Below are positions 1 through 38,426 of a DNA stretch of 44,852 nt, piece after piece. The stretch is taken from the sequence record PZ239914.1. One strand, given 5' to 3'. The notes beneath the pieces were generated by a model that saw nothing but the letters and a program-made list of their open reading frames with translations, was not told the DNA's origin and made no database searches. Numbering within the stretch: position 1 is the first letter of the stretch; each line of letters starts with the position of its first letter. The stretch comes from a phage. The position numbers and the translations under genes were made by a program.

Positions 1-98
1 GTGTGCCGCCAGCGCACTCCAGGGCACTACGGCAACCGCATAAGCAACCTTTACCTGGTAGACGTTGCACGCGACCCGAACTTTTATGCGTAAATTGG

Positions 99-127
99 TT
101 GCATAATCATATTGGTTGCATTATATT
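99..127 (+). promoter_or_regulatory. candidate sigma70-type promoter (TTGCAT-17-TATATT) with two TTGGTTGCA motifs
   Basis: -35 TTGCAT at 99-104, 17-nt spacer, -10 TATATT at 122-127; ATTGGTTGCA copies at 94-103 and 111-120; precedes the ORF at 175. Confidence 0.45.
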
Positions 128-174
128 GAGGGTGTCCGGTTTGGACGCCCTTTTTAATACCTGGAGACGACACA

Positions 175-417
175 ATGAGATCATTATTTTTCGACTACGA
201 CGGCGACCTTCGATTTTGGGTGATACTCCTCCTCATGTTTTCCGTTTGTATTTGCGTACCTACCGCGGCTATTTACTACACGGAACGCTACGAATGCAAG
301 ACCGTATATGCCGAGCAAACGGGACGTAATACCCAATGGCGATACGGAGTCTGCTGGGTGGAGATGGACGGCAAATTTATTCCACGCAAAGAGATTCGCA
401 CTACGGAGATTAAATAA
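175..417 (+). CDS. hypothetical small membrane protein (80 aa)
   Basis: ATG ORF with GGAGA about 8 nt upstream; hydrophobic segment WVILLLMFSVCICVPTAAIYY. Confidence 0.5.
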   Translation: MRSLFFDYDGDLRFWVILLLMFSVCICVPTAAIYYTERYECKTVYAEQTGRNTQWRYGVCWVEMDGKFIPRKEIRTTEIK

Positions 418-876
418 ATGAAAATTTTACAAGAAGAGAAAAATTACTGGGCCGCGCAATGCCTCGAAGCCCGCGAACAGGTCGAACGTGTTAGCGCGCT
501 GGCAGACACCTACCTTGCGAGCTATGAAGGCGAGGAGAAGGCGCGCAAGGAATTAGAGGAGCGCTTCGATCTGCTGTATGAGTTGATGGGTATTATGCAG
601 CGCACCGGATACACCACCACCGTCGCGCTAAACCGCATCACTGCCGAAGGTCTGCGCGAGCATTGCAAACGTGCCGAGGAGTACGTGCGCCCCAAAGGTC
701 GCCAGTCTAAGATCGACCGGAAAGACCTGGTGCTTATGGCGTGGCGCGCAAACGGTAGCTACTACTCCGATTGCCGACCGCTTAGCGTCGAGGGCGCAAA
801 GCGCCTGCAACGCGTTCTAAACAGTGGTAAGAAAATTGCCCTGTACGCGATAGATCAAGATCATGCAGAAGAGTGA
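418..876 (+). CDS. hypothetical protein (152 aa)
   Basis: ATG immediately after the upstream stop with GGAG upstream; charged coiled-coil-like N-terminus; no recognised motif. Confidence 0.55.
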   Translation: MKILQEEKNYWAAQCLEAREQVERVSALADTYLASYEGEEKARKELEERFDLLYELMGIMQRTGYTTTVALNRITAEGLREHCKRAEEYVRPKGRQSKIDRKDLVLMAWRANGSYYSDCRPLSVEGAKRLQRVLNSGKKIALYAIDQDHAEE

Positions 877-1348
877 GCAGAAAGATAGCTGGCGCACACC
901 GCCAGCTTTATTTAAACCGCTGCGCCGTAAGTTCCGATTCCGTTACGATATGGCGGCAAGCGACGCCAATCATCTGCTACCGCGTTACTTCACGGCAGAG
1001 CACAGCGCGCTTGATGTGGACTGGGCAGAGTTGAAAGGGTGGAAATGGTGCAATCCGCCGTATTCCGATCCGCTGCCGTGGGTGGAATGCGCAGCGCACG
1101 GACGACGGACTGTCATGCTGCTGAATCAGGACACGTCGACGAAGTGGGCGAAGTTGGCCCGGAAGACTGCAAACCAGATAATTCTTCTGGACTGGCGGAT
1201 TAGATTCATTCACGCCGTCACCGGCGAAGTCGGTCCGAGCAATAACAAGTGCCAGCAATTGATAATCTTTGACGAAGCGCCGCCAACCGGCAGCGCAAAA
1301 ATTGAAATAATGAGCGAAGGAGAACTCCTTGAATATCTTAATCGTTGA
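863..1348 (+). CDS. DNA N6-adenine methyltransferase (phage Dam family)
   Basis: WRTPPALF, FRYDMAASD and the catalytic NPPY motif (WCNPPYSD) in the order typical of phage Dam-family MTases. Confidence 0.8.
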   Translation: MQKSEQKDSWRTPPALFKPLRRKFRFRYDMAASDANHLLPRYFTAEHSALDVDWAELKGWKWCNPPYSDPLPWVECAAHGRRTVMLLNQDTSTKWAKLARKTANQIILLDWRIRFIHAVTGEVGPSNNKCQQLIIFDEAPPTGSAKIEIMSEGELLEYLNR

Positions 1349-1373
1349 CCGCGACCCCGCGGTCGTAGACCAA

Positions 1374-1553
1374 ATGCAAAGAGACTACTGTATTGATCCG
1401 CGACGCAATCGTGTAGTGCGCGCGTCTCGCCCTGAATACATCCTGGGCCTTGACCTCACCGGTTGGCTTGTCATGACTCAGCGTTGCCATTTCGTGTGCA
1501 ACTCCTTTACTGCGCGAAGCGCCCGTTACACCCTTATTGAGAGTTTAAAATGA
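1374..1553 (+). CDS. hypothetical small protein (59 aa), doubtful
   Basis: ORF track 1329..1553 starts at TTG; first ATG at 1374; weak RBS; fills a 200-bp gap between the Dam and HAD genes. Confidence 0.25.
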   Translation: MQRDYCIDPRRNRVVRASRPEYILGLDLTGWLVMTQRCHFVCNSFTARSARYTLIESLK

Positions 1554-2020
1554 AATTACTGATTTGCGATTTGGATGGCGTTATTAACGGCTCAAGTGAT
1601 GCGCGCGCCGACCTGGTGCCGGGTATAAAAACCAAATCCACCTTTTGGGCAAAGTGGCACAAAGCGCACGTACGCGAAGACCTGAACATGGATATGCTGC
1701 CGCTGCTGCGTATGTATGAAGAGCAAGGCTTCAAGATTGCGTATCTGACAAACCGGCAGCGCGAATGTTGGGAAACCACCGCCGAGCAACTGGAAGTATT
1801 CCCGAACGGCCGGTTGTTCATGCGCCATATGCAGGACGACACCCCGCCGCCCGAGTTTAAGGCGTGCGCCGTGTTCAAAATGGTCTGCTATGCGGACGTG
1901 TCCGAACTGGTCATCATTGAAGACTGTCCGAAGAACATAGCGGCAATTCGTCGGGCGTGTAGCGATTTGGTCCCGAAAATTTACGCAATAAATGTTGCGA
2001 AATTTACTTGCAACCAATAG
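1550..2020 (+). CDS. HAD-superfamily hydrolase/phosphatase-like protein
   Basis: N-terminal LICDLDGVI matches HAD motif I (DxDG); GAGAG RBS upstream. Confidence 0.55.
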   Translation: MKLLICDLDGVINGSSDARADLVPGIKTKSTFWAKWHKAHVREDLNMDMLPLLRMYEEQGFKIAYLTNRQRECWETTAEQLEVFPNGRLFMRHMQDDTPPPEFKACAVFKMVCYADVSELVIIEDCPKNIAAIRRACSDLVPKIYAINVAKFTCNQ

Positions 2021-2037
2021 GTTGGTTGCACTATAGT
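2008..2037 (+). promoter_or_regulatory. candidate sigma70-type promoter (TTGCAA-18-TATAGT) overlapping an inverted TTGCAACCAA/TTGGTTGCA pair
   Basis: -35 TTGCAA 2008-2013, -10 TATAGT 2032-2037; inverted 9-mers at 2008-2017 and 2022-2030. Confidence 0.4.
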
Positions 2038-2082
2038 TAACGCGTCGGGGCAATACGGCCCCACGCTAAAAAGGACCACATA

Positions 2083-2637
2083 ATGAAAGCATACGAATAC
2101 TGCAAAAACGCCGCCACCACTATGGAACAGCGCGGGAAAGAAAACGGCTATGACAACGCGAAAGAAGAACGCAGCGCTAAACAAATCGCTGCCGTGTTTA
2201 ACGCGCTTACCGGTCGCGACCTTACCGAGCAGGAAGCCTGGACCTTCCTGATCTGCCTGAAGCTGGTACGCCAGCACCGCAAGCACCAGGAAGACAATAT
2301 TGTTGACCTGGTAGCATATGCCGCACTGCTGGGCGAGTCTCACATGACCGTGCATGACGAGATTCAGATCGATACAACGGCAGAACAGTTTGAAAGTCTC
2401 AAAGGCCTGTCCGTGCGTCTCGACGGTGAGATTAATGCGTATAACAGCGCAATTCGCGTTGCGGAGGACACGATAGCCTCGTTCGGCAAGACTGTTAAGG
2501 CCCGCGATTTTGGGTGTGTAGCCCAGGACGTCCAGCCTATGGTCGTGCTCACCGGTGAAGACGGATCGAAAATCTGCATGACGCAGGAAGATTTCCGCAA
2601 CATGGAAAAAACACTGGTGACTGGCGCACTTAAATAA
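2083..2637 (+). CDS. hypothetical protein (184 aa)
   Basis: ATG with AAAGGA RBS; preceded by a GC hairpin and AGGACCACA leader; no recognised catalytic motif. Confidence 0.6.
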   Translation: MKAYEYCKNAATTMEQRGKENGYDNAKEERSAKQIAAVFNALTGRDLTEQEAWTFLICLKLVRQHRKHQEDNIVDLVAYAALLGESHMTVHDEIQIDTTAEQFESLKGLSVRLDGEINAYNSAIRVAEDTIASFGKTVKARDFGCVAQDVQPMVVLTGEDGSKICMTQEDFRNMEKTLVTGALK

Positions 2638-2679
2638 TTCTAATCGCGGGCTTCGGCCCGCATCAATGAGGACCACACG

Positions 2680-3249
2680 ATGTACGGCGAATATGAAATA
2701 TCTGGTAAACAATTCCACCTGGCGGCAATGATAGCAAGCATCGAGTTTGACCAGTGGCGCTTAAAGTCCGACGCGTGCAAGCAAAGCCGTCTTGTTGGTG
2801 TGCTGGGCGAGATGTTTGCAGGCATGTATCTCGAAGGGCAAGCAGGAGGGCGCAGTTGTATACCGCAAGGCTTGCTTATGCGTACGGGCCTGTTTAGCGC
2901 CAATACCATTGACCGCGGCGATATCATCATGGTCGGCAAGCGCAAGGTAAAGTCCGGCCCCGACTTCCGCGAGCATGTGATCGATGCCGTATGGACCTAC
3001 GAAGTTAAGGCCACCAGCGGCATCCGTCGCGGACTGGTAGAGGCGCGTTGCGCTCGCGAGTATCTTGCCCGTCGAGTTGCAGGTGTTATCCTGGTAAGCG
3101 TAGCGTTCGGGCAGCATAACGCGCACGGCGTGATTGAGGATATCGCAGAGCCATACGTGATTGTTAATGACTGGCCCTTAGTGGAAGTGGATGGAAAGGA
3201 GTATTACGAAAGCCCGCTGGTGCGTCGCAAGATAGAAAACGGGGCATAA
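2680..3249 (+). CDS. hypothetical protein (189 aa)
   Basis: ATG with GAGGA RBS; preceded by the GCGGGC-UUCG-GCCCGC hairpin and AGGACCACA leader. Confidence 0.6.
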   Translation: MYGEYEISGKQFHLAAMIASIEFDQWRLKSDACKQSRLVGVLGEMFAGMYLEGQAGGRSCIPQGLLMRTGLFSANTIDRGDIIMVGKRKVKSGPDFREHVIDAVWTYEVKATSGIRRGLVEARCAREYLARRVAGVILVSVAFGQHNAHGVIEDIAEPYVIVNDWPLVEVDGKEYYESPLVRRKIENGA

Positions 3250-3266
3250 AGCCCCGTTGTTTTTAC
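3238..3266. terminator. bidirectional intrinsic terminator at the convergent junction
   Basis: AACGGGGC-ataaa-GCCCCGTT stem-loop followed by a T-run on plus; lies between the plus gene ending at 3249 and the minus tail fiber ending at 3284. Confidence 0.6.
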
Positions 3267-3283
3267 TACTCAGGAAGTATTCC

Positions 3284-4900
3284 CTACTCCCCGGACTCAG
3301 GCATCTCAACTCGCATATCAATCCATCGCCCCGCCGGTATATCTACGGGGTCCATATCCGCCACGCCTTCCACGATGTTTCTTGCAAATTCCGGAACTCC
3401 TGTGTGTTCCCGGTGGAACGTTTTAACAATTATGTCCCCGGTATCCAGAACCTTAAAGTCCACCCACAACAACGGCAACCCGTTGTTGTTACTCGGAATT
3501 GTAAAACCACCATCAACCCCTCCCCAGGCCGGATCCGAGTTAAACCCTAACACTCCGGATACCTTATACACGCCCGTATCGATCCGCTCGCTCTTCACAC
3601 CTTCTGCCTCCTTGTTAAGCTCCGCGGTTCCGTCGCCACGCAACTTAACGATAGGAGACGCGGGCTTAAGGTTGCCGTTAGTGTCAATGGTGGTGTTGGC
3701 GACTGAGTAGAATTTTCCCGCAGGGCCGACAAGGGTGCCGTTGTTGTACATTACCCATATCCTTCCATATGTCGCATGGTCGACAGCCCCGAATACGAAC
3801 CCGGATGTATCGGGGTTTAAATCCGGACTTGCGAGCGCCCCCCATGAAAAATCAATGGTCCAGTTTGTTGTGGAGGCGCTAACCTGGCTATGTTTCGCCA
3901 CGGAGTCCGGGGCCAATGACACTACCGACTTATACCCGAAATCCGCCACGCCCACGTTAGTTCCGGCGGATAATCGTGTAGTGTATTTATTTTGGGTGCT
4001 CCCAACCTCGACTAGGTCGCCGGCCCCGACTCCAACGTTACGCGTTGCCGCTGAGCCAAGCCCCATATTCGTACGGGCTGCGGCCTTGTTGGCAACGTCT
4101 GCCAGGTTCTGCGACGTCTTCATGAATTGCGCAGGGTTGATCGAGTTTTTGAATCCTTCGGCTTCGTCGCGGTATCCCAACGCGGCATCACGGGCGGTTT
4201 GCGCGTCTGTCTTCGCCGCGTTGGATTCGTCGCGAATAACGCCGGTATCCGTCTTAATCTGGTTGGTCTGGTCCTTGATGGCCTGCGTATCAGATTTAAG
4301 CTGATCGGTTTGCGTCTTGATTGTATTGGTGGCGTCGTGGATCGCCTGCGTATCAGCCTTAATCTGGTTGGTGGCGTCGCGAATACCAGCCGTCTCGGTC
4401 TTGAAGCCTTCTGCCTCATTGCGAAATCCTTGCGCAGCTGCTTCCGATGCGGCGGCTTGCTGTTGCAGGTTGCGCATCTCAACAGGGTCGATCTGCTTCA
4501 TTAGCTGCGACAGATAGCCCCATGACATGCCCTGCATAACCAGCCCGTTAGGTAACGTCACTGTGACTTCTTCAGCGTCGCCGAAGATTGCACGCCAGTT
4601 GTTTTCATCCGCGATCATCAAGCGTAATGCCTTCTGTGCCTGGACGGTTACGCCCATCGTTGCCAGCGACATGGTATCGCGCTTAACGCCATCCCACGCG
4701 AGGCCGGTTGCCGTTGGGCCGTCGAACGGCAGAACCAGAGTAAGCGACGTGTCGCTTTCAATGGACGCGATTGCCACGGTGTAGGGGACTTGTCCTACAA
4801 CCAGCGTTAAGAAGTCGCCAGCGTTAAACGCGGTAAACGTCGTGCCAACCCCTACAACCGCCTTGCTGTTGTTCGTTACGGATAGAGTACCCGCTGCCAT
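3284..4900 (-). CDS. side tail fiber protein with coiled-coil repeat region
   Basis: 538 aa from the ATG at 4900 (GAGGA RBS); repeated D-x-T-N-x-I-K-x-D-T-Q-A-I units; Gly/Thr-rich C-terminal region; adjacent to the J homologue. Confidence 0.7.
   Translation of the reverse strand: MAAGTLSVTNNSKAVVGVGTTFTAFNAGDFLTLVVGQVPYTVAIASIESDTSLTLVLPFDGPTATGLAWDGVKRDTMSLATMGVTVQAQKALRLMIADENNWRAIFGDAEEVTVTLPNGLVMQGMSWGYLSQLMKQIDPVEMRNLQQQAAASEAAAQGFRNEAEGFKTETAGIRDATNQIKADTQAIHDATNTIKTQTDQLKSDTQAIKDQTNQIKTDTGVIRDESNAAKTDAQTARDAALGYRDEAEGFKNSINPAQFMKTSQNLADVANKAAARTNMGLGSAATRNVGVGAGDLVEVGSTQNKYTTRLSAGTNVGVADFGYKSVVSLAPDSVAKHSQVSASTTNWTIDFSWGALASPDLNPDTSGFVFGAVDHATYGRIWVMYNNGTLVGPAGKFYSVANTTIDTNGNLKPASPIVKLRGDGTAELNKEAEGVKSERIDTGVYKVSGVLGFNSDPAWGGVDGGFTIPSNNNGLPLLWVDFKVLDTGDIIVKTFHREHTGVPEFARNIVEGVADMDPVDIPAGRWIDMRVEMPESGE
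4150..4400 (-). repeat. in-frame degenerate tandem repeats inside the tail fiber gene
   Basis: Repeated ctgcgtatcag...ttaa..ctg.t.ggt DNA units encoding IRDATNQIKADTQAIHDATNTIKTQTDQLKSDTQAIKDQTNQIKTDTGVI; approximate boundaries. Confidence 0.5.
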
Positions 4901-4921
4901 AGCTAAATCCTCATAAATTGG

Positions 4922-4950
4922 TTGCATTCTTGATCGAGCGGTGTAATACT
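4922..4950 (+). promoter_or_regulatory. candidate sigma70-type promoter (TTGCAT-17-extended -10 TGtAATACT) for the lipoprotein gene
   Basis: ATTGGTTGCA at 4917-4926 overlaps the -35; an 80-bp divergent region separates the tail fiber start (4900) from the lipoprotein start (4981). Confidence 0.4.
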
Positions 4951-4980: not shown

Positions 4981-5202
4981 ATGAAAACTTTAATTATGAT
5001 TTGTGCGGTTCTGTTGGCTGGTTGTGCTGTAGAACGCAACAACGGCGATTGCATTACGGTTGCCTACGGTAGCTGCATGTTGCGCTACGTCGACGGGAAG
5101 AAAGTGCCAGCCGGAGATGTGGATATGCGCTTCACTGGTCTGTCTGCCGATAGTGACGGCAACTTCTCGGGTACGGTATCAGTTAAATCGCGGGAGTGGT
5201 AA
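4981..5202 (+). CDS. small lipoprotein (73 aa), candidate superinfection-exclusion factor
   Basis: MKTLIMICAVLLAGC signal peptide with lipobox L-A-G-C; GGAGA RBS; own promoter; opposite strand to the flanking tail genes. Confidence 0.6.
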   Translation: MKTLIMICAVLLAGCAVERNNGDCITVAYGSCMLRYVDGKKVPAGDVDMRFTGLSADSDGNFSGTVSVKSREW

Positions 5203-5204
5203 TA

Positions 5205-15117: not shown

Positions 15118-15291
15118 TTATGCAGTCTCAGACGAGGGGGGCCGTTGACCCCCGTCTAGTCTGAAAGACTGGGCTTTGTCCCGCTTGTCCCGATCGGCTG
15201 AAAACCGCGGCAGCACTGGCGGGGACGTGGTGCTGTCCCGCTTTGTCCCGCTCCTTGTTTGTCCCGCTTTCTGTCCCGCTCAGTTTATGCA
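15118..15291. repeat. iteron-rich noncoding repeat element, copy A
   Basis: About 174 bp, roughly 85% identical to 32339-32512; starts TTATGCAGTCTCAGACGAGGGGGGCC with nested hairpins, then six direct TGTCCCGCT-type units, ends AGTTTATGCA. Confidence 0.8.
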
Positions 15292-15439
15292 CGAAATACG
15301 AATAGGTATGCACATTTGTGGGGTGGGACAAAACGGGACGTCCCGCTTGTCCCGCTTTTAGATTATGCAATGGTAGTGATTAGATATGCGGTTTTGCAGG
15401 GGCGGGACAAAACGGGACGCCCCGATCAGTCCCGCTTCA
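15292..15439. repeat. additional direct and inverted GTCCCGC/GGGAC iterons extending copy A
   Basis: GGGACAAAACGGGAC at 15325-15339 and 15405-15419 (inverted) plus direct GTCCCGC units at 15340, 15349 and 15430. Confidence 0.7.
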
Positions 15440-16131: not shown

Positions 16132-16156
16132 TAAAAAAGGGGCCGTGCTGGCCCCA
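16132..16156 (-). terminator. intrinsic terminator/attenuator after the major tail protein gene
   Basis: Minus strand GGGGCC-agcac-GGCCCC followed by U6, directly upstream of the G RBS. Confidence 0.55.
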
Positions 16157-16185
16157 TATTATCACTCGCTATTTAAGCGACCAAA

Positions 16186-20909: not shown

Positions 20910-20998
20910 GCTATCCCCCTGGGATTGTGGCAAAGCGGGCCACCCGCTTGACTTCACGCCTTAATATTATCAGCGATAAAAATAATCGCAAAATTCGC

Positions 20999-21028
20999 TT
21001 GCATTGCGGATGTTGGTTGCAGTATATT
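20999..21028 (+). promoter_or_regulatory. candidate sigma70-type promoter (TTGCAT-18-TATATT) with two TTGGTTGCA motifs
   Basis: AT-rich upstream tract at 20961-20998; motifs at 21012-21020 and 21026-21034; drives the plus genes at 21064-22182. Confidence 0.45.
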
Positions 21029-21063
21029 GGTTGCACACCAACAGAGATATGAAGGAAAACAAA

Positions 21064-21417: not shown

Positions 21418-22182
21418 ATGAGACTGACGAAAGACATTAAAAATCAGATTCTGGCTAACATCCTGCGCGACCATGAAATCGCTGTCGAAGCCAAATCCAT
21501 CATGATGGACTCTCGCGACCTTGCGTACGCCATTACGCTGGACTGTATGCCGGAAGGCATTCGCACGTTCGCAGCGCTCCGCGAGCATATCAAGGCAATC
21601 CGCGATGACCAGTCGCTGATGTACGGCGTCAGCGTCTACACCAACAAGGCGACGTATAGCTATAACACAGACCGCCCGAAAGGTATCGGCAGCGTTTACG
21701 ACGCCTCTTTCGAAATAAACGCAGGCGGCAATGTTCGCACCTTGTCATTGAGCGGCGATGGGCGACAAAACCGCGTACGTCGCGGATACTGGGACATCAA
21801 ATACATGAACAAGCTCGCGCCTGACCTCGGCGATATTGTACCCGGATACGAAGAAGAGATGCTCGCGTCAGTGTGTGAATTGGACGAGGACGGGAAAGCG
21901 CTGCCGATATATCTTCCGCGCGGTCGAGTAGACTACCCTGCGGACCATGATTTCTGTAAGCGCCTGGACCGTAACGACAAGGCCCGCCGCGAGTTGCGAG
22001 CTAAGTATGACGCGTTCAAACTAACCGTTACCGGCGTGCTGGATATGCACAATACCGATAAGAAGCTGATCAAGGCGTGGCCTGAAGTGGAACAGTTCAT
22101 TCCGCACCCTGACAAGCCGAAGTCCACGGCGGTGGCGCCGGACGTGAAGACGTTAAACGAGATTTGCGGTATTCCGCGCTAA
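21418..22182 (+). CDS. hypothetical protein (254 aa), embedded island gene 2
   Basis: ATG with GAGGA RBS; followed by a terminator hairpin; no recognised motif. Confidence 0.6.
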   Translation: MRLTKDIKNQILANILRDHEIAVEAKSIMMDSRDLAYAITLDCMPEGIRTFAALREHIKAIRDDQSLMYGVSVYTNKATYSYNTDRPKGIGSVYDASFEINAGGNVRTLSLSGDGRQNRVRRGYWDIKYMNKLAPDLGDIVPGYEEEMLASVCELDEDGKALPIYLPRGRVDYPADHDFCKRLDRNDKARRELRAKYDAFKLTVTGVLDMHNTDKKLIKAWPEVEQFIPHPDKPKSTAVAPDVKTLNEICGIPR

Positions 22183-27301: not shown

Positions 27302-27514
27302 TTAAACGTGGCGACCGTAGTATCGGGTTAACATGCTTTCTACTTCGCTTATAGCGCCTTCTGTGTAGCGTATTTGCGATAGTATCTCGATCCGCTCGCT
27401 GATAGACATGCCTATTGCCGCTGCCGTTCGTTCGAATCGGCGCAAGCCTTCGAGTTGTTTGCGTAATTCCTTCAGGCGGTCCGCCTGCGTGCTCATGAAT
27501 ACTTGTCTAATCAT
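27302..27514 (-). CDS. hypothetical protein (70 aa)
   Basis: ORF-track ORF; stop overlaps the upstream gene. Confidence 0.4.
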   Translation of the reverse strand: MIRQVFMSTQADRLKELRKQLEGLRRFERTAAAIGMSISERIEILSQIRYTEGAISEVESMLTRYYGRHV

Positions 27515-28653
27515 CTCAGCATTTCCGGGCTAATGGTTAAGCGCGCTACTTCGCCGTAGTTGGCGCTATAGGTGATTACGTTGGCACTACGACCTGACAT
27601 CCAACCGCCTCGGCTGGCATATGCGTCTTTTGCGGCGAGCGTCCGGTGTTGTTCAACAATCATGTTGCGGGATTCTACAATCTTCTGGTGGTGCAAGTGG
27701 CCTACATGCGCGTAGCTATACTCGCTGGATCCGAACGCTTGTCTGAATTTTGAAATCATGACGGTTTCAATAGCGTCAAAACGTGCCTTATGCCCGTGGT
27801 GGAAGAATAGCGTGGTCTTGCCGTGTTGCACCATTTTGTATACGTCCGGGGACGTATCCACATCGACACGCGGCTCGTTCTCGTACAGGGTATTGAACAT
27901 TTCAGCCAGCCAAATCATGCCAGACTCGTCATGATTCCCCTGGACTATTAGCAGTTTGACTTTGTGGTGTTTTTGCAGCGCCAGTTCCACCACGTTGCGC
28001 ACCATGCGAATCATGTAGCGGACCAGTTTCTGGTAGCGGGTATCCGCGTCCAGTACGTGCCCGCTGGCAGGAGTGACGGCATCGAGGCTATCAAAGTGCG
28101 CCATATCACCGAGGATATTGATTACGGCAGTGCCTGCGTCTGGTGCGCGTGCGAAGGCTTCGACAAACCAGCGATAGAACAGGTCTTCGGCAATCGCCAT
28201 ATCCCAATCCTCGCCAGTCTCCTCACCCCATGCCAGCATGCCCAGGTGGAAGTCGGACACGGTGTACAGGTTGAGTAGGTCAAGTGCCTGGATCGGGACT
28301 GGTGGGGCGCTTACTGGTGCTGCCGGTTTGATTTCGCTGTTCATACCCTCGACAACGGCGCTCATTGCTTCAAGCTGGCGCTCCTTGTCCTGCTCAGTGA
28401 TAACCCACGACATGACCTCTTCGCCATTTCCGCGCACCAGGGCGGATACGCGTTTAACACCGAAGCCATCGGCAACGCGCTTACGAATTACGGCATCATT
28501 ACCGTGACCAATACCTTTCTTCGACAGGCGGGCTTTGCGCATGTAGACATTTCGAAGAGCAATTCCGTACTTCTTCGCAATATCTTTCGCGGTAGTGCCG
28601 GATTGCAACTCGGCGATCAATTGCTCGTCGGTGATTTTAGTTTGCGGGTGCAT
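27511..28653 (-). CDS. HTH domain fused to calcineurin-like metallophosphoesterase
   Basis: Phosphoesterase motifs in order: DFHLG, GDMAHFD, GNHDE, HHGH, GHLHH; N-terminal HTH-like TAKDIAKKYGIALRNVYMRKARL. Confidence 0.7.
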   Translation of the reverse strand: MHPQTKITDEQLIAELQSGTTAKDIAKKYGIALRNVYMRKARLSKKGIGHGNDAVIRKRVADGFGVKRVSALVRGNGEEVMSWVITEQDKERQLEAMSAVVEGMNSEIKPAAPVSAPPVPIQALDLLNLYTVSDFHLGMLAWGEETGEDWDMAIAEDLFYRWFVEAFARAPDAGTAVINILGDMAHFDSLDAVTPASGHVLDADTRYQKLVRYMIRMVRNVVELALQKHHKVKLLIVQGNHDESGMIWLAEMFNTLYENEPRVDVDTSPDVYKMVQHGKTTLFFHHGHKARFDAIETVMISKFRQAFGSSEYSYAHVGHLHHQKIVESRNMIVEQHRTLAAKDAYASRGGWMSGRSANVITYSANYGEVARLTISPEMLR

Positions 28654-28796: not shown

Positions 28797-28859
28797 GTGT
28801 AATACTCCTCTCGTTGATTGGTCGCAGTATGGCGTCTATGTTGGTTGCAAGTCAAGCAA

Positions 28860-28896
28860 TAAAAAGCCCGGAATTAACCGGGCTTGTTGTTTTATT
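28860..28896. terminator. bidirectional terminator after the Ig-like gene
   Basis: AAGCCCGG-aattaa-CCGGGCTT flanked by A5 and a T-rich run. Confidence 0.55.
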
Positions 28897-31363: not shown

Positions 31364-31524
31364 TCTGTCAATCTCCTGTAGTTACGAACTAATGTGAGGC
31401 GCGAGATAGTGCGGCGAGTACCACACTTAGGGTGTGAAATAGTCACGTTGCCGTTTGCTTCTTCTGTCACGAAGTAAGTCAGTCGCGTGGCCTTACTCCG
31501 CCAGCGTTCAGGTTGCTTGTTCAT
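31360..31524 (-). CDS. possible small protein (54 aa)
   Basis: ATG at 31524; MNKQPERWRSKATRLTYFVTEEANGNVTISHPKCGTRRTISRLTLVRNYRRLTE; below the ORF-track cutoff. Confidence 0.3.
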   Translation of the reverse strand: MNKQPERWRSKATRLTYFVTEEANGNVTISHPKCGTRRTISRLTLVRNYRRLTE

Positions 31525-31790
31525 TTTGCCAGTCTCCAGTGTTTGCCTACCCGCTCAATGGCGGGCTTTCGGCGTAATGTAATACGGATCCCCATTGGTT
31601 GCAAGGAAGTCCGCACCCTGAAATCGTGTTGTGCTGCGAACTGGTGCAAGTAGCGAGTCTGCGTCAACGGCTTCACGTCATCGCGATAGCACCAGAACAC
31701 TGATTCGCCCGCATTCGCATTCCTAGCCCATATTCGTATGCAATGCAGTGGAATATGCCACGAAAGCTGTTTCGCTCGTCTACGGCCCAT
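31521..31790 (-). CDS. hypothetical basic protein (89 aa)
   Basis: AAGGGG RBS; contains a TTGGTTGCA copy at 31594-31603. Confidence 0.35.
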   Translation of the reverse strand: MGRRRAKQLSWHIPLHCIRIWARNANAGESVFWCYRDDVKPLTQTRYLHQFAAQHDFRVRTSLQPMGIRITLRRKPAIERVGKHWRLAK

Positions 31791-31799: not shown

Positions 31800-32126
31800 T
31801 TATTTCGCAAGCTGGGCGAATAGTTCGCGCTGGGCTTTAATCCGGGCGACGTTAGTCACTGCCGTCTCGCCGATCCCGAAGCGATACGCCAGGCGCTCAC
31901 GGGCAAATGCCAGCGCGTAGTCCTGGATAGCGTTCGCCAACGGCTGGATCTCTTCCATAGTGTCTAAGCGGTCCTCCAGCATACAGGCGATGGCCTGCTG
32001 CGTGACGCGAACAACGGACCACGCTGCCGATAGTCTTTCGATCGCTTCCGCTCCCTCACTGGCGAACTCCGCCGCTTCTTGCGCCGCCGCCATAGCCATT
32101 GCGTAATTCCAGATAATCGCTTTCAT
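31800..32126 (-). CDS. hypothetical protein (108 aa)
   Basis: GGAGG RBS; preceded by the candidate promoter at 32155-32183. Confidence 0.5.
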   Translation of the reverse strand: MKAIIWNYAMAMAAAQEAAEFASEGAEAIERLSAAWSVVRVTQQAIACMLEDRLDTMEEIQPLANAIQDYALAFARERLAYRFGIGETAVTNVARIKAQRELFAQLAK

Positions 32127-32154
32127 TGTTCAGTCCTCCGGTTGGTGTGCAACC

Positions 32155-32183
32155 AAAATATCAGGGTGCCAGGCTGAATGCAA
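32155..32183 (-). promoter_or_regulatory. candidate sigma70-type promoter (TTGCAT-17-TATTTT) with two TTGGTTGCA motifs
   Basis: Minus-strand motifs at 32148-32156 and 32179-32188. Confidence 0.4.
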
Positions 32184-32338
32184 CCAATATTAATCACGCG
32201 CATGAAAAAGTTGATCGCTATCTGCTGCAACTGCAAACTGCATTTTCTGCCCACCATTCAGCAACTCGCATTGGTTGCCTAGTTCATCCGCGACCGCACT
32301 TCGCATCATGCTGCCGTGTATTTTGCAATCCCCGGATT

Positions 32339-32512
32339 TTATGCAGTCTCAGACGAGGGGGGCCATTGACCCCCGTCTAGTCTGAAAGACTGGTAGTTGT
32401 CCCGCTTGTCCCGCTCCCCTCCAGGCCGCGTCCTCCGGGGCGGGACGGGGGTGCTGTCCCGTTTTGTCCCGCCTCTTGTTTGTCCCGCTTTTTGTCCCGC
32501 TTAGTTTATGCA
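32339..32512. repeat. iteron-rich noncoding repeat element, copy B
   Basis: Same 5' hairpin module and six TGTCCCGCT-type iterons as copy A, with a divergent central spacer; between the primase end and the 31800-32126 gene. Confidence 0.8.
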
Positions 32513-32586
32513 ATAAAACTGCATAACTATTCACTATATTCACACTACACGGCAACCAATACGACCAGATAAAAACACTCAAAATG

Positions 32587-32669
32587 GCAACCAATGCGCG
32601 CAAAATTTAATCTTTTAGCGATATGGGAATTCCCATATCGGCAACCAATACGCGCAAAATTTAATCTTT
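32587..32669. repeat. 30-bp direct repeats flanking a 20-bp perfect palindrome at the primase 3' end
   Basis: GGCAACCAAT(G/A)CGCGCAAAATTTAATCTTT at 32587-32616 and 32640-32669; palindrome GATATGGGAATTCCCATATC at 32620-32639; second repeat contains the primase stop codon. Confidence 0.7.
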
Positions 32670-34935: not shown

Positions 34936-35265
34936 TTACTTAGAAGTTTTATTATTGCGTACCCAGGAGCGCACTGTGCTCTGATTAATTCCGGTCAACT
35001 CGGCGATCATTGCCCAGGACTTTCCCTCATTGCGCAAACGGATAACCTGCTTTTTGTATTCTTCCATTTCTTCATTGTGTTTTTGCAGCTTGCTCGCTGC
35101 CGTACCGTTGAGCAATTCCAGCCTGGCGCGTAATTCTTTTTCGGCACTGCGCAGACGTTCGATTTCAAATAACACCGCCCCCACGGCATCTGTATAAGCC
35201 CATGACCGGCTTGTCTCACTGCAAACAGTCTTCGTTAACATTTCGATTGCGTCGTTTACATTCAT
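34936..35265 (-). CDS. HTH DNA-binding protein (109 aa)
   Basis: C-terminal HTH-like KSWAMIAELTGINQSTVRSWV; coiled-coil N-terminus; GAGGG RBS; first gene of the leftward arm. Confidence 0.55.
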   Translation of the reverse strand: MNVNDAIEMLTKTVCSETSRSWAYTDAVGAVLFEIERLRSAEKELRARLELLNGTAASKLQKHNEEMEEYKKQVIRLRNEGKSWAMIAELTGINQSTVRSWVRNNKTSK

Positions 35266-35296
35266 TGCTCTGCCCTCAGTTGGTTAATGACCAACG

Positions 35297-35325
35297 AAAC
35301 TACACCCAAAACTGCACGGTGTCAA
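35297..35325 (-). promoter_or_regulatory. candidate leftward promoter (TTGACA-17-TAGTTT)
   Basis: Minus-strand perfect -35 TTGACA with a weak -10; about 25 nt upstream of the HTH gene RBS. Confidence 0.3.
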
Positions 35326-35441
35326 ATCCTTTGGATATTGAAACGGGCGCGCACGCGTGTAATAATAATTCCCGTCTCATTGTCTCTTATTGGTTAGCGC
35401 CGTCGCATTTTGCCTCGGCGCTTTTTTTTTAAAATTAGTTG

Positions 35442-35471
35442 TTGACACCCATCCTGCAACCAATCTATCAT
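35442..35471 (+). promoter_or_regulatory. candidate strong rightward promoter (TTGACA-18-TATCAT) with upstream T/A tract
   Basis: Perfect -35 TTGACA at 35442-35447, -10 TATCAT at 35466-35471, T9A4 tract at 35422-35434; TGCAACCAAT motif in the spacer. Confidence 0.5.
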
Positions 35472-35667
35472 TCACTCCGTCGACAGGATGCAGGACGCAA
35501 ACTGGAGAGGGGCAACGCAGGGGCCGGATCGAAGTGTCAGGATTCCCAACCGTGATTATATAACCCGGTCCACTACCCGAACGGGAGAACGCGCAACCGG
35601 GCAATATGTTAAGGCCACCGACGAAGTTAACTGCCGACACCTAAACTTAACCAATCGGAGATATACC

Positions 35668-36183
35668 ATGTTTGAGCAAATCGTAAACCTGATCACTCGC
35701 GGCGTAGTAGCACTGGAAACCATCGCTAAACATTATGAAACCGTTGGCGCTGCCGTTGGTAAGCAGGAAGACAAGAAGCCGTCTAAGGCCAAAAAAGAAG
35801 TTGTCGAAGATGACGACAATGACGCCGAAGACGAAAAACCGGCTAAATCTAAAAAAGCCCCGGCGAAAGGCAAGGCCAAAAAAGAAGTCGTAGAAGATGA
35901 CGACGATGATGCCGAAGACGAAAAACCGGCTAAATCTAAAAAAGCCCCGGCGAAAGGCAAAGGTAAGAAAGATGCCGATCCGCTGGCGGAGATGCGCGAC
36001 GAAATCAAACAATATGCCGCTATTATTGCCGGTGGCGATGACGACGACGCGAACGACGAATTCGACGACCTGCTGGAATCGTTCGAGATCAAATCAATCG
36101 CCAAGCTGGAAGATGACGACGTCGAAGACTTCCACACAGAGTTGAAAGAGATCGTCGAAACCTATTTCGAACTGGAAGATTAA
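35668..36183 (+). CDS. highly acidic tandem-repeat protein (171 aa), candidate DNA mimic
   Basis: ATG with GGAGA RBS; two 29-aa repeats KKEVVEDDD(N/D)DAEDEKPAKSKKAPAKGK; Asp/Glu-rich C-terminus; first gene after the strong promoter. Confidence 0.6.
   Translation: MFEQIVNLITRGVVALETIAKHYETVGAAVGKQEDKKPSKAKKEVVEDDDNDAEDEKPAKSKKAPAKGKAKKEVVEDDDDDAEDEKPAKSKKAPAKGKGKKDADPLAEMRDEIKQYAAIIAGGDDDDANDEFDDLLESFEIKSIAKLEDDDVEDFHTELKEIVETYFELED
35791..35964 (+). repeat. 2 x 87-bp in-frame tandem direct repeat
   Basis: 35791-35877 and 35878-35964 are near-identical. Confidence 0.8.
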
Positions 36184-36191
36184 TGTATTCC

Positions 36192-36218
36192 GGCCCGCTA
36201 ATCTGCGGGCCTCTTTTT
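36192..36218 (+). terminator. intrinsic terminator after the acidic protein gene
   Basis: GGCCCGC-taatct-GCGGGCC followed by a T-run. Confidence 0.55.
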
Positions 36219-36231
36219 AGAGGACGAGACA

Positions 36232-36483
36232 ATGGCACGCTTCACGCTAATCGAGGCGGTGGACTCCCGCGACCAACGCCCGTATTATTGGCTATTCGAA
36301 CGCATCGGCAATTTTCAGTCACGCGTTGCCGTAATAGACAAACGCCGCAACACCCCCGCGCAAATTAAGCGCACCACCTTTACTAATCCCGACTTTTATA
36401 TTTGGGCGGATTCCAATCTGGAATATGTTCGCTTCGCAGTTGCATCCGAAGCAAGAACAATCGACCGCTGGGAGACAAAATAA
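36232..36483 (+). CDS. hypothetical protein (83 aa)
   Basis: ATG with GGACGAGACA upstream; no recognised motif. Confidence 0.5.
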   Translation: MARFTLIEAVDSRDQRPYYWLFERIGNFQSRVAVIDKRRNTPAQIKRTTFTNPDFYIWADSNLEYVRFAVASEARTIDRWETK

Positions 36484-36671
36484 TGACTGTATTCTTTGTT
36501 TTATTTCGTTGCCGTATCACAGGCGACGAGCTTCCAGAAATAATTAGGCATGAGAACTGGCTTTGCTGTTGGGGGAAAGCCTGCGACCTGGCTTTTACAA
36601 TGAACGAAGACGCGAAGCGGGCCAATGTTGAACACGATTATTACATTGCTCAATTTTCAAGGGTGGAATAA
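36483..36671 (+). CDS. hypothetical Cys-containing small protein (62 aa)
   Basis: ATG overlapping the upstream stop (TAATG); GGGAG RBS. Confidence 0.4.
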   Translation: MTVFFVLFRCRITGDELPEIIRHENWLCCWGKACDLAFTMNEDAKRANVEHDYYIAQFSRVE

Positions 36672-38101
36672 TGGCGATTAAACCGAAGCGCAAAACACAA
36701 TCCGGTAGTAATACGGAACATTCATTACTCGGGCCATCCGGTGCTAAAAAATGGATGGGTTGCCCCGCCGCCCTGGTGGTAGAACAGGGCATCCCGAACG
36801 AATCCGGGCAAGCGGCGATTAACGGTACGAGTATGCACACCGTATCTGAAGTCGTGCTCAACCGCATCATTGCCGGTGAGAAGCTGATAACCGCGAAGAC
36901 GTACAAAGGGTGCTACGTCGAGAACGAAGGTAAGGGACCGGTAAAGGCACACCCAAAAGCGCCGAAAGGCGGCGTACTGGTCAACGACGATATGGTGAAA
37001 CAGTGCGACGCATACATCGACCACTGGCGACCGCTCCTCGAAGTGGCGGAGTTTGTTCAGCTTGAGATGCGCGCCGATCTCACCCGCGTCCTACACTCGG
37101 GCTTCGAGATCGACGGCAACCGGATTAAGACGTTCGGTACTGCAGATATGGTCATGGTCATGAAGAAGACCGACGGCACGTACATGCTGATTGTTGGCGA
37201 CCTGAAGACGGGGCGGCACAAGGTCGAGGCGAAAGAAAACAAACAGCTTATGTTGTATGCGCTGGGCCTGCTGCGCAAGCTGAAAACCATGTACGACATT
37301 ACAACCGTGCGCCTGGTTATCTTCCAACCGTATTGCGGCGGGGCGTCGGAGTGGGATATTTCGGTAGAAGCCCTGGAGATATTCGCGAAGTTTGCGTCCA
37401 AGCGTGCTATCGCCTCCCTGGAAGCGTACGCCCGCGGCAAAAAGGGACTCACCCGTGCCGACTTCCGACCGAGCGTTGATGCGTGTCAGTGGTGCAGATT
37501 TGCGGATCAGTGTAGCGCCCGCGCTAAGGCTGCAATCGACACGATGACCCCACCAACGGCAACAGACGAAGACCTGGGCGACGACGTGAGTATTGCGACA
37601 GAGGAAGAATGCGCCAATCACGACCGCAATATGGCCCGCGAAGCCCGCAAAGCGGCACGACGTGCGAAGCGTGGTAAAAAAGAAGCGGCCCCCGGCGCTA
37701 TGACCGCCGCGGAACTGCGCAAGGCTTATGAGGGTCTAGACGCAATGCGCCAGCACATCAAGGCTATCGAGTACGCGGTATTCAAGGCGGTTATGGCGGG
37801 CGATGGCGAATCGCTGGGCCTCAAGATGGTTGCCGGAAAGGAAGGAATCCGCAAGTGGGCGGACGAAAGCGAAGTGATTGAAATCTTCACGAAGGCCCGG
37901 ATCAAGCGCGATGTGATGTACAAAGAAACATTGCTCAGTCCTACGGATGCCGAGAAGGTACTGAAGGACGAGAAGCCGAAAGTATGGGCGAAGCTGTGTG
38001 ATAAAATCACGCGCGCACCGGCTAAACCGGTATTAGCACCAATCGACGACCCACGCCCTGCGTGGTCTGAAGCTACTGACGAGGACTTAAGCAATGAATA
38101 A
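36671..38101 (+). CDS. PD-(D/E)XK nuclease with Cas4-like cysteine cluster (DUF2800-like exonuclease)
   Basis: GTADMVMV...IVGDLKTG nuclease motif; CQWCRFADQCS Cys cluster; charged C-terminal extension; adjacent to an SSB-like gene. Confidence 0.7.
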   Translation: MAIKPKRKTQSGSNTEHSLLGPSGAKKWMGCPAALVVEQGIPNESGQAAINGTSMHTVSEVVLNRIIAGEKLITAKTYKGCYVENEGKGPVKAHPKAPKGGVLVNDDMVKQCDAYIDHWRPLLEVAEFVQLEMRADLTRVLHSGFEIDGNRIKTFGTADMVMVMKKTDGTYMLIVGDLKTGRHKVEAKENKQLMLYALGLLRKLKTMYDITTVRLVIFQPYCGGASEWDISVEALEIFAKFASKRAIASLEAYARGKKGLTRADFRPSVDACQWCRFADQCSARAKAAIDTMTPPTATDEDLGDDVSIATEEECANHDRNMAREARKAARRAKRGKKEAAPGAMTAAELRKAYEGLDAMRQHIKAIEYAVFKAVMAGDGESLGLKMVAGKEGIRKWADESEVIEIFTKARIKRDVMYKETLLSPTDAEKVLKDEKPKVWAKLCDKITRAPAKPVLAPIDDPRPAWSEATDEDLSNE

Positions 38102-38336
38102 AGTATTTGCAATCTTATTGATGTTTGTTATCGGCGCGCTGGGCTTTATCCTGAATTGTGTGCAAGGCGTGTTAATGGTGGCCTGGATGATTCGCCATCC
38201 AACCCGCTGGCTGGATGACGGCTATAGTGAAGCTGCCGTCGGTTGGTTGGAGAAGAACATCGACCGCCCGCCGTTAAGCTGGATCGAGAACGCTACCAAC
38301 TACGTGACCAGAAATCTTTTTAACGAAAATGCTTGA
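38094..38336 (+). CDS. hypothetical membrane protein (80 aa)
   Basis: Hydrophobic N-terminus AILLMFVIGALGFILNCVQGVLMVAWMI. Confidence 0.45.
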   Translation: MNKVFAILLMFVIGALGFILNCVQGVLMVAWMIRHPTRWLDDGYSEAAVGWLEKNIDRPPLSWIENATNYVTRNLFNENA

Positions 38337-38426
38337 CCGCTCAGGCGCAACCAAGTAAATTGGCAACCAAGCCGAACGGGGTGGCTTCCAATAACCCCGA
38401 TACATGTGAAAATGAGGAATTGGAAA

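Follow-up and report, generated by a model that had tools for sequence, protein, structure and literature searches.

The C1 repressor of phage P1, a temperate phage in which C1 maintains lysogeny, acts through dispersed asymmetric operators of 17 bp. The 'stoperators' bound by gp71 of mycobacteriophage L5, which is also temperate, lie in a single orientation relative to transcription and block elongation. KorA of plasmid RK2 (the KorA/KorB regulon) is a dimeric HTH repressor of ~100 aa with an N-terminal HTH; its operators are palindromes whose position does not vary. Phi29 p4 and lambda CI/Cro use few sites, in one or two control regions, at divergent promoters.

The DNA analysed here (the window; 44,852 nucleotides, PZ239914.1) is the complete genome of a virulent E. 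coli phage of the genus Dhillonvirus (HK578-like). No integrase or CI-type gene was found in Dhillonviruses, in contrast to temperate P1. The 10-base word ATTGGTTGCA is present within nearly every promoter of this genome. We consider it somewhat more likely than not that the copies of (A)ATTGGTTGC(A) serve as asymmetric operators, dispersed over the genome, for a single phage regulator that is probably a repressor; the likely binder is a 109-aa protein with a coiled coil and an HTH. As with P1 C1, one asymmetric word lies over many promoters, single or paired, in either relative orientation and overlapping promoter cores; however, Dhillonviruses are virulent, the operator is ~10 bp rather than 17 bp and of different sequence, and no similarity to C1 was detected for the 109-aa protein, with its C-terminal HTH. 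The motif shares with L5 stoperators a short asymmetric site, about 20-30 repeats and a location almost exclusively in short intergenic regions, but the Dhillonvirus copies occur in both orientations and in register with -35/-10 hexamers. The likeness to RK2 KorA would be that of a small HTH repressor with operators over the -10 of many promoters including its own, giving replicon-wide negative feedback, although the Dhillonvirus sites are asymmetric and variably placed and no homology was detected. The regulator appears to be undescribed, though it would belong to an ordinary type of phage control circuit.

A sequence-only reading of this genome had pointed to an over-represented word clustered in intergenic regions, and had proposed a count against shuffled sequence; both observations are borne out. 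Twelve exact copies of TTGGTTGCA are found on both strands, compared with 0.42 +/- 0.73 expected from 100 dinucleotide shuffles (maximum 3), and the core TTGGTTGC occurs 21 times, compared with 1.85 +/- 1.45 (maximum 6). Copies with two or fewer mismatches to the 10-mer number 46, with 41 expected by chance, indicating that the signal resides in the exact and near-exact copies. The total is ~24 sites over ~11 promoters, and about 20 of the 23-24 sites are intergenic, in a genome whose non-coding share is ~7%. Shuffling synonymous codons within the genes hardly changes the count (17 of 21 copies survive), since the copies lie outside coding sequence. (Two further coding copies, at 13724 and 43835, are probably due to chance.) Most sites are asymmetric and have no second half-site; three are TTGGT-N5-ACCAA palindromes. 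The positions given earlier were right to within 1 nt, but several were off by 1: the correct starts are 21013 and 21027 (not 21012 and 21026), the palindromes lie at 21027-41 and 32142-56, and the minus-strand copies lie at 2009-2018, 32586-32595 and 35455-35464. The earlier list had missed a copy at 41989 (+) and two instances of the variant TTGGTCGC (28818 and 42001), each with an exact partner. The sites are listed here with their promoters, which are predicted as matches to the sigma-70 consensus.

94-103, + strand: ATTGGTTGCA over the -35 hexamer TTGCAT (99-104) of P1; conserved in 8 genomes
99-127: P1, TTGCAT-17-TATATT, upstream of + strand genes 175-3249
111-120, + strand: copy in the P1 spacer, 1 nt upstream of the -10 TATATT (122-127)
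2009-2018, - strand: reverse copy supplying the -35 hexamer TTGCAA (2008-2013) of P2
2008-2037: P2, TTGCAA-18-TATAGT
2021-2030, + strand: copy in the P2 spacer, adjoining the -10 TATAGT (2032-2037)
4917-4926, + strand: copy over the -35 hexamer TTGCAT (4922-4927) of P3; P3, as read from the sequence, has a 17-nt spacer and an extended -10 TGtAATACT (4942-4950), upstream of the cor-like lipoprotein gene 4981-5202
20964-20991, - strand: inferred late promoter of the structural operon, TTGCGA-16-TAATAT, read from the sequence
20999-21028: P4, TTGCAT-18-TATATT
21012-21021, + strand: copy in the P4 spacer, 1 nt upstream of the -10 hexamer
21026-21041, + strand: copy across the start site and the final two bases of the P4 -10 hexamer, extending to the palindrome TTGGTTGCACACCAA (21027-21041)
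28817-28826, + strand: variant copy ATTGGTCGCA, in the minus-strand reading directly after the P5 -10 CATACT; exact motif in 4 of 7 other aligned genomes
28840-28849, + strand: copy directly downstream of the P5 -35 hexamer TTGACT
28855 to 28826, - strand: P5, TTGACT-18-CATACT, past a terminator; the phosphoesterase, terminase and portal genes lie downstream
31594-31603, + strand: copy within the 89-aa gene 31521-31790
31604 to 31576, - strand: possible internal promoter TTGCAA-17-TACATT, its -35 TTGCAA supplied by copy 31594-31603
32142-32157, - strand: copy overlapping the P6 -10 TATTTT (32160 to 32155) and start site; palindrome TTGGTTGCACACCAA
32179-32188, - strand: copy over the P6 -35 TTGCAT (32183 to 32178); P6, on the minus strand with a 17-nt spacer, is upstream of gene 31800-32126 and the lysis genes
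32270-32279, + strand: ATTGGTTGCC, left flank of iteron block B, pointing at the iterons; no promoter hexamers recognised
32551-32560, - strand: ATTGGTTGCC, flanking iteron block B on the right, with a conserved TATAGT 12 nt downstream; found in 8 of 8 genomes
32586-32649, - strand: two ATTGGTTGCC copies (32586-32595, 32640-32649), one per copy of a 54-bp tandem unit, with the palindrome GATATGGGAATTCCCATATC between them
34936-35265, - strand: gene of the 109-aa candidate binder, first in the leftward early operon, before the helicase-primase gene
35280-35294: palindrome TTGGTTAATGACCAA, 2 nt downstream of the -10 of the HTH-gene promoter
35325 to 35297, - strand: HTH-gene promoter, TTGACA (35325 to 35320), 17-nt spacer, TAGTTT (35302 to 35297)
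35442-35471: P7, TTGACA-18-TATCAT, rightward replication operon
35455-35464, - strand: copy in the P7 spacer, 1 nt upstream of the -10 hexamer
38333-38361: P8, TTGACC-17-TAAATT, upstream of the ssDNA-binding protein gene
38346-38355, - strand: CTTGGTTGCG in the P8 spacer, abutting the -10 hexamer
38362-38371, - strand: CTTGGTTGCC directly downstream of the P8 -10 hexamer
41988-42009, + strand: ATTGGTTGCT over the P9 -35 TTGCTG (41993-41998) and ATTGGTCGCG in the P9 spacer
41993-42021: P9, TTGCTG-17-TATAGT

A sigma-70-like promoter is overlapped by 16 of 23 sites, whereas 3.2 would be expected at random genome positions and 7.8 +/- 2.3 at random intergenic positions. The motif-bearing predicted promoters serve the early replication operon (including its internal promoters) and the cor/membrane-protein, Nmad5, lysis and terminase/portal genes. 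Copies had been said to sit just upstream of -10-like hexamers, and five indeed have a TAnnnT hexamer 0-1 nt downstream (0.63 expected); nTATAnT comes after three copies (112, 2022 and 21013). Placement varies: some copies cover the -35 hexamer, some abut the -10 hexamer from within the spacer, and others cover the -10 and start site; two copies per promoter are typical, and both orientations relative to transcription occur. The promoter-associated copies fall within ~-40 to +12, the footprint of RNA polymerase. The motif is thus not a fixed promoter element, and its variable position and orientation within sigma-70-type promoters agree with the earlier suggestion of an operator rather than a pure promoter element. 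Orientation is also independent of the neighbouring gene, as had been proposed: the copy beside the P2 -10 is inverted (TGCAACCAAcTATATT) in slur05 and McMelon and retains its position. At the sites within 32586-32649 promoter hexamers are unrecognised, making these copies orphan sites; the 54-bp unit is present 2, 1 or 0 times per genome, and the orphan copies beside iteron block B vary in number among genomes.

Across the genus, the core (A)ATTGGTTGC is retained at the same promoters, with 19-22 copies per genome in McMelon, HK578 and slur05. The metagenomic relatives L008 and L010, with only ~72% DNA identity to the window, have 13 copies per 20 kb at the same promoters. In both, two tandem copies fill the P7 spacer, the two-copy arrangement of P9 is identical, and GCAACCAAT lies 9 nt past the -10 hexamer of the HTH-gene promoter. 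The iterons of L008 differ and its motif is the same, indicating that the motif is independent of the iterons.

The regulator is most likely phage-encoded, and the 109-aa protein is the likeliest candidate for its identity. Of two HTH candidates named earlier, the product of 34936-35265 does have an HTH (Pfam matches HTH_23, Sigma70_r4_2 and HTH_28), but 27511-28653 is rejected, being a calcineurin-like metallophosphoesterase annotated as a DNA repair exonuclease. Among ~30 proteins scanned against Pfam, only the 109-aa protein has a regulator-type HTH. Its N-terminus is hypervariable; a long helix spans residues 21-79, and the C-terminal HTH, at residues ~66-107, consists of three helices. 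An AlphaFold2 model (pLDDT 88) places the HTH after a long helix. All motif-keeping lineages share an unchanging stretch of 65 C-terminal residues, recognition helix included; lineages with a changed recognition helix were not encountered, and the co-conservation of HTH and motif is a correlation. The protein's own promoter has a site in the window, L008 and L010, although none was found at that promoter in HK578. Counting against this binder, the N-terminal half of the HK578 protein is very different, yet the motif is unchanged elsewhere in that genome. The C-terminal 40 residues locally match the HTHs of serine recombinases, LuxR/GerE, sigma-70 region 4 and IS-transposase N-termini; Foldseek superimposes the HTH with an rmsd of ~1 A over 34-46 residues; the fold as a whole is unmatched, the best E-value being 0.65. 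Recombinase, transposase, receiver and sigma domains are all absent from the protein. The names it bears in public annotation ('transposase', 'resolvase', 'nuclease inhibitor gamma') are unsupported. The phage also encodes many small proteins with no recognisable domain, any of which could be the true binder instead.

The T4 MotA box, the lambda CII TTGC repeats and the phi29 p4 sites are models for activator-bound promoter elements, and a phage activator or polymerase-modifying factor might similarly bind the motif and switch on middle or late promoters. We consider this unlikely. It would fit the weak -35 hexamers that the motif itself forms at many promoters (TTGCAT, TTGCAA, TTGCTG), the presence of the motif at lysis and packaging promoters, and the conserved site 32551, which has a good -10 hexamer and no -35 hexamer. 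In addition, the P4 copies lie ~60 and 74 bp upstream of the presumed start of the divergent late promoter and could act on it from ~-60 and -74, which would be a class-I-activator distance. However, the distance from motif to -10 is not fixed and orientations are mixed; known activators do not act from the spacer, the start site or ~+4 to +12, where copies are found; and MotA-box, CII-type TTGC-N6-TTGC and sigma-54 patterns coincide with no motif copy. The strongest, near-consensus promoters bear the motif too, P7 (11 of 12 matches) with its spacer copy being the extreme case. A further reading has very little probability, namely that each copy and its 5' flank (TAnnTT-GGTTGCA) together form the -10 hexamer and discriminator of a promoter firing in the motif direction. 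Y-A-n-n precedes TTGG in 8 of 21 sites, creating a TAnnTT whose final TT is the motif's opening pair of bases, so that some copies themselves resemble -10 hexamers; P4 and P6 are in fact arranged in this way. Most such copies, though, lack a -35 hexamer at a distance of 16-18 nt, as reading the sequence at sites 95, 112 and 35456 shows, several would fire away from or against genes (28841, 35456), and equivalent places are occupied by reverse-oriented copies.

Two other explanations, both improbable, would make promoter control incidental or assign it to the host. The copies could be primarily sites of replication origin or DNA organisation, bound by an initiator or accessory protein encoded beside the helicase-primase gene, with promoter overlap secondary. 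In every lineage 4-5 copies flank iteron block B, which comes immediately after the helicase-primase gene, and that gene is transcribed together with the HTH gene; but most copies are distant from iteron blocks and keep register with -35/-10 hexamers, none lies at block A, and EP23 lacks the 54-bp units that bear two copies. Slightly more doubtful still is binding by a host E. coli protein that the phage uses or tolerates, such as a FadR/GntR-type factor (boxes like TTGGT-Nx-ACCAA) or CytR (GTTGCATT). The three palindromic sites, the occurrence of GTTGCATT within three motif copies and the 5' part AATTGGT, which we take to resemble PdhR/UxuR-type half-sites, would speak for such a factor. The prevalence of asymmetric sites speaks against it, as does the palindrome spacing of 5 nt, not 3. 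Among relatives the base after GC is A, C or G, which breaks the CytR word. Phages reported from Sodalis and Shigella hosts retain the motif, and the P6 operator region has no similar sequence in 5,426 E. coli genomes.

The reading we favour is that of operators for a phage regulator, mostly paired and embedded in the core of almost all sigma-70-type phage promoters. Since the copies lie inside the RNA polymerase region, an occupied site should exclude polymerase, and occupancy would give genome-wide repression, either a shut-off or a throttle. A dimer of the 109-aa protein would set two HTH domains on two copies of variable spacing and orientation, and would also control its own promoter. The inferred late structural promoter (20964-20991), which scored below the threshold of the promoter scan, would escape repression, its core being free of copies. 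An early protein that represses lysis and terminase/portal promoters would be awkward in a lytic programme. In the literature searched, no binding or transcription data were found for any Dhillonvirus. With ~24 sites at ~11 promoters the arrangement differs from the few control regions of phi29 p4 and lambda CI/Cro, and activation in Dhillonvirus would be purely conjectural; as in those phages, however, sites in a divergent region could repress one promoter and spare or activate the other, and such control is possible at P4 versus the late promoter and in the region 35266-35487.

When two 12-kb pieces of the window are compared with database sequences by megablast, ~160-180 phage records match at 80-95% identity, nearly all of them phages of Escherichia, Shigella or Sodalis that belong to the genus Dhillonvirus (HK578-like siphoviruses). 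The window is a whole genome of ~44.9 kb, in the orientation opposite to that of phage McMelon, with the following layout:

35.5-44.6 kb, and on across the window junction to 3.2 kb, plus strand: replication, recombination and DNA-modification genes
35.3 to 22.3 kb, minus strand: 109-aa HTH protein, helicase-primase, small proteins, lysis proteins, metallophosphoesterase, terminase, portal and head morphogenesis protein
20.9 to 6.2 kb, minus strand: head and tail genes
21.0-22.2 kb and 4.98-6.17 kb, plus strand: small gene islands

One plus-strand island, whose content differs among genomes, holds the gene for an Nmad5 protein ('nucleotide modification associated domain 5'; 21418-22182, plus strand; Pfam E = 9e-55), which is driven by the motif-bearing promoter P4; some genomes have a RusA-like gene instead. 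At the head of the rightward early operon, a gene at 35668-36183 (plus strand) encodes a 171-aa protein in which basic (KPAKSKKAPAKGKAKK) and strongly acidic (EDDDNDAEDE) repeats alternate; it matched no known family, and it could be histone-H1-like or a DNA mimic.

The sequence-only reading had found a short word, clustered between genes, to be strongly over-represented, and this over-representation is real. Within the 10-base motif, also written ATTGGTTGC, the word TTGGTTGCA is present in 12 copies versus 0.42 expected and the shorter core TTGGTTGC in 21 versus 1.85; none of the shuffled sequences came near these counts, and the positions originally assigned to the copies are correct to within 1 nt. 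Alignment of all copies gives the consensus Y-R-t-A-TTGGTTGC-(A>C>G) with an asymmetric core, and because nothing further 3' is conserved in the alignment and weight matrix, the motif has no second half-site. A variant, TTGGTCGC, lies at 28818 and at 42001, each time beside an exact copy. About 20 of the 23-24 sites are non-coding, though non-coding DNA makes up only ~7% of the genome; two intragenic copies, at 13724 and 43835, look like chance occurrences. (A conserved TTGGTCGC variant, perhaps a weak member of the motif family, is also seen at 16132-16185, minus strand, between the major tail protein and tail chaperone genes; an extended -10-like TGaTAATAT comes after it, with a GC-rich hairpin and a six-T run immediately behind.)

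The copies were placed by reading each site, by consensus scans and by a promoter scan of our own. Almost every copy lies inside a σ70-type promoter predicted from the consensus. These promoters (P1 to P9) and the motif copies within them are:

99-127, plus strand: P1, TTGCAT-17-TATATT; one copy over the -35, another inside the spacer, 1 nt upstream of the -10
2008-2037, plus strand: P2, TTGCAA-18-TATAGT; -35 supplied by a reverse copy, second copy abutting the -10
4922-4950, plus strand: P3, TTGCAT-17-TGtAATACT; single copy, over the -35
20999-21028, plus strand: P4, TTGCAT-18-TATATT; one copy abutting the -10, another overlapping the -10/start and extended to TTGGTTGCACACCAA
28855 to 28826, minus strand: P5, TTGACT-18-CATACT; reverse copies immediately after the -35 and immediately after the -10
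32183 to 32155, minus strand: P6, TTGCAT-17-TATTTT; one copy over the -35, another over the -10/start, with the very palindrome found at P4
35442-35471, plus strand: P7, TTGACA-18-TATCAT; reverse copy inside the spacer, 1 nt upstream of the -10
38333-38361, plus strand: P8, TTGACC-17-TAAATT; -10 abutted on both sides by reverse copies
41993-42021, plus strand: P9, TTGCTG-17-TATAGT; one copy covering the -35, a variant one within the spacer
31604 to 31576, minus strand: possible internal promoter, coinciding with the copy at 31595, which lies within a small gene

By consensus matches (11/12), P7 is the best promoter in the genome. Overlap with a promoter-like sequence is seen at 16 of 23 sites, compared with 3.2 for random genome positions and 7.8 +/- 2.3 for random intergenic ones, and a TAnnnT hexamer lies 0-1 nt downstream of five copies (0.63 expected; P ~5e-4). 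Copies cover the -35, occupy the spacer, cover the -10/start or lie at ~+4 to +12, and they occur in both orientations: forward at P1, P4, P6 and P9, reverse at P5, P7 and P8, and one of each at P2. The P2 copy beside the -10 reads TTGGTTGCAcTATAGT in six of the eight aligned genomes and TGCAACCAAcTATATT in slur05 and McMelon, that is, inverted in the same place. A 5' RNA hairpin formed by the TTGGTTGCACACCAA palindrome is rejected, because the inferred start site lies within the palindrome. On the strand opposite P5, a promoter-like TTGATT-17-TATGTT (28814-28842, plus strand) would run into a bidirectional terminator at 28864-28885; it may be a by-product of two motif copies.

The arrangement is shared by relatives. 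McMelon, HK578 and slur05 contain 19-22 copies of the core, which is among the top k-mers in each, and across the eight genomes the motif copies and flanking hexamers are kept, with variable spacer bases in between. Two metagenomic relatives, L008 and L010, were found by way of divergent homologues of the HTH protein. Where their DNA can be aligned with that of the window, identity is only ~72%, yet they have 13 copies of TTGGTTGC in 20 kb, at syntenic promoters. At their equivalent of P7 the spacer is filled by two tandem reverse copies, TTGACG-CAACCAACGCAACCAATC-TAGTAT. Their promoter for the HTH gene carries GCAACCAAT 9 nt after the -10; that of the window has TTGACA-17-TAGTTT followed by the palindrome TTGGTCATTAACCAA. 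In IMG/VR, two motif copies within 25 nt occur at at least 120 loci, nearly all of them single, apparently chance matches in unrelated contigs; among the matches listed, only Dhillonvirus contigs have several such loci each.

Two HTH proteins had been proposed as binders. One, the 109-aa product of 34936-35265, stands: among ~30 proteins searched against Pfam, DNA-binding-type matches are seen only in this protein and the terminase small subunit, and its residues 65-106 match HTH_23, Sigma70_r4_2 and HTH_28. The other, the 380-aa product of 27511-28653, is instead a calcineurin-like metallophosphoesterase. The AlphaFold2 model of the 109-aa protein (pLDDT 88) combines a short helix, a helix of 59 residues and, at the C-terminus, a three-helix HTH; for the model, Foldseek gives local HTH matches only (resolvase, DeoR, LuxR/GerE, sigma-4, IstA) and no global match. 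Homologue and related-locus searches find its relatives in Dhillonvirus-like contigs only, all with the same recognition helix (INxSTVRSW); this helix is part of an invariant C-terminal region of ~65 residues, while the N-terminal ~40 are hypervariable, and in HK578 the N-terminal part is replaced by a longer, unrelated N-terminal half. Its gene opens the leftward early operon, within the divergent control region. Position, domain content and parallel conservation make the 109-aa protein the best candidate binder. Its public names (transposase, resolvase, 'DNA recombination nuclease inhibitor gamma') are not supported; a transposase or resolvase would need a catalytic DDE or serine-recombinase domain, and here there are HTH matches only, in a model that is a helix bundle plus HTH.

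The suggestion that the motif is not a pure promoter element holds: it has no constant place with respect to the hexamers, occurs in either orientation, and so behaves like a binding site. A -35 hexamer needs 16-18 nt to the -10, a TGn lies directly upstream of the -10, and both have a single orientation; the motif keeps no fixed distance and no single orientation, and so is neither a -35 nor an extended -10 element. The T4 MotA box, (a/t)(a/t)TGCTT(t/c)A, is centred at -30 and replaces the -35; the window's two MotA-box-like words lie away from the motif sites, and the position of the motif is variable. Promoters activated by lambda CII or P22 C1 have a direct repeat, TTGC-N6-TTG(C/T), that straddles the -35, and none of the four matches in the window is at a motif site. 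The σ54 pattern (TGGCAC-N5-TTGC(A/T), GG and GC 10 nt apart) has no strict match in the window, and its loose matches are away from the motif sites. Host operators of the FadR/GntR type (PdhR, UxuR/ExuR) share a palindromic box, TTGGT-N(2-3)-ACCAA; the window has only three palindromes, all with N5, and the other ~20 sites are asymmetric. The CytR pattern does not explain the motif sites either, and E. coli genomes contain nothing similar to the P6 operator region.

Closest in logic are the dispersed asymmetric operators of phage P1 C1, followed by the RK2 KorA regulon and the L5 stoperators. As with C1, the same asymmetric word overlaps many promoter cores genome-wide; as for homology of the regulator to C1, searches of Pfam, PHROGs and PDB by sequence and fold give generic HTH matches only. 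L5-type stoperators have one orientation relative to transcription and lie between co-directional genes, whereas the window motif occurs in both orientations, a violation evident from the forward copies at P1, P4, P6 and P9, the reverse copies at P5, P7 and P8, and the spacer copy at P2 that flips. Given that no homology was found, that the orientation rule is violated and that the phage is virulent, the motif is placed outside all three systems. Conceptually it would be one more case of an established design, the dispersed operator regulon, with no new principle.

Taken together, these observations tilt the balance slightly toward the motif being the operator of a phage regulator that acts mainly as a repressor, with roughly half of that confidence resting on the 109-aa protein as the binder. 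Steric repression is the simplest reading, because all promoter copies lie within ~-40 to +12, inside the polymerase footprint, near-consensus promoters included. Each 10-bp copy would be read by one HTH of the bound protein, and a coiled-coil dimer could bridge two copies at spacings of 9-31 bp in either orientation. A weak point of the repressor reading is that the lysis and packaging promoters likewise carry the motif. For the late structural genes, one promoter was read from the sequence:

20991 to 20964, minus strand: inferred late structural promoter, TTGCGA-16-TAATAT

Its core has no motif copy, so control may pass from early and middle units governed by the motif to a late unit free of it. 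Relative to the presumed start site of this late promoter, the copies at P4 are ~60 and 74 bp upstream, and activation from them is conceivable but speculative. A fuller scheme, in which a virulent genus runs almost its whole transcription programme through one asymmetric operator and a lineage-restricted dual-switch regulator, seems improbable; early, middle and lysis promoters would be repressed from within their cores, and the motif-free late promoter would be activated from -60/-74. Under this scheme, because operator and DNA-binding domain are the same across the genus, the regulator could act in trans on co-infecting relatives, and the variability of its N-terminus might have arisen from an arms race against a host sensor or partner protein.

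In the accessible parts of the Dhillonvirus literature (searched by genus, HK578, SO-1/EP23/SSL-2009a and the literal motif strings) nothing was found on the motif or on regulation, and in the GenBank record of HK578 the only promoters marked are three consensus ones in the divergent region. Few E. coli siphophages are isolated as often as Dhillonviruses, which feature in the BASEL collection and in anti-defence studies and are candidates for therapy. One conserved putative operator that flags ~11 promoters yields a promoter and operon map for the genus, singles out one candidate regulator gene that is currently mis-annotated, and offers engineering a handle for tunable promoters or trans-repression.

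Four copies lack convincing hexamers, namely the one at 32270 and the three TTGGTTGCC copies that lie beyond the helicase-primase gene on its downstream side; they flank a repeat block. Two of the TTGGTTGCC copies belong to a 54-bp tandem unit, of which five genomes have two copies, SO-1 and HK578 one, and EP23 none; between these two TTGGTTGCC copies lies a perfect 20-bp palindrome, GATATGGGAATTCCCATATC, at 32620-32639. The flanked block (block B) is one of two related ~170-bp blocks, both beginning GACCCCCGTCTAGTCTGAAAGACTGG and each with 5-7 TGTCCCGC iterons (13 copies versus 2.4 expected):

15150-15420: iteron block in the gap between the tail-chaperone and tape-measure genes
32370-32545: iteron block downstream of the helicase-primase gene

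In the GenBank record of SO-1 these blocks bear the labels repeat 'region A' and 'region B'. In L008, the block B iteron is ACGGTGCC instead of TGTCCCGC with the motif unchanged, and the two repeat systems are therefore independent. Because their layout resembles the ori/crr pair of phage P4, the two blocks are probably a bipartite origin. Segment-wise identity of the helicase-primase shows no clear domain that co-varies with iteron type.

Another word, ACGGCARC (reverse complement GYTGCCGT), has 51 copies genome-wide, mostly intragenic, in all frames and both orientations, for example at 1071, 9142, 17266, 24926, 34626 and 42353. Synonymous-codon shuffling within every gene leaves 15.0 +/- 2.8 (maximum 23), CGCTGCCGT alone has 14 copies versus 0.68 expected, and ACGGCARC words top the k-mer lists of other Dhillonviruses; this excess suggests selection at the DNA level.

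Rfam matched no family anywhere in the window, the segment at 35338-35437 (plus strand) included. This segment, between the divergent early promoters, is almost invariant across the eight genomes and has a promoter-like TTGAAA-17-AATAAT with TG, followed after ~35 nt by a strong hairpin and a nine-T run (-16.7 kcal/mol, z = -4.0). It could give rise to a transcript of ~60 nt that includes UUAUUGGUUAGC; alternatively, the hairpin and T-run could act as an insulator and UP element for P7.
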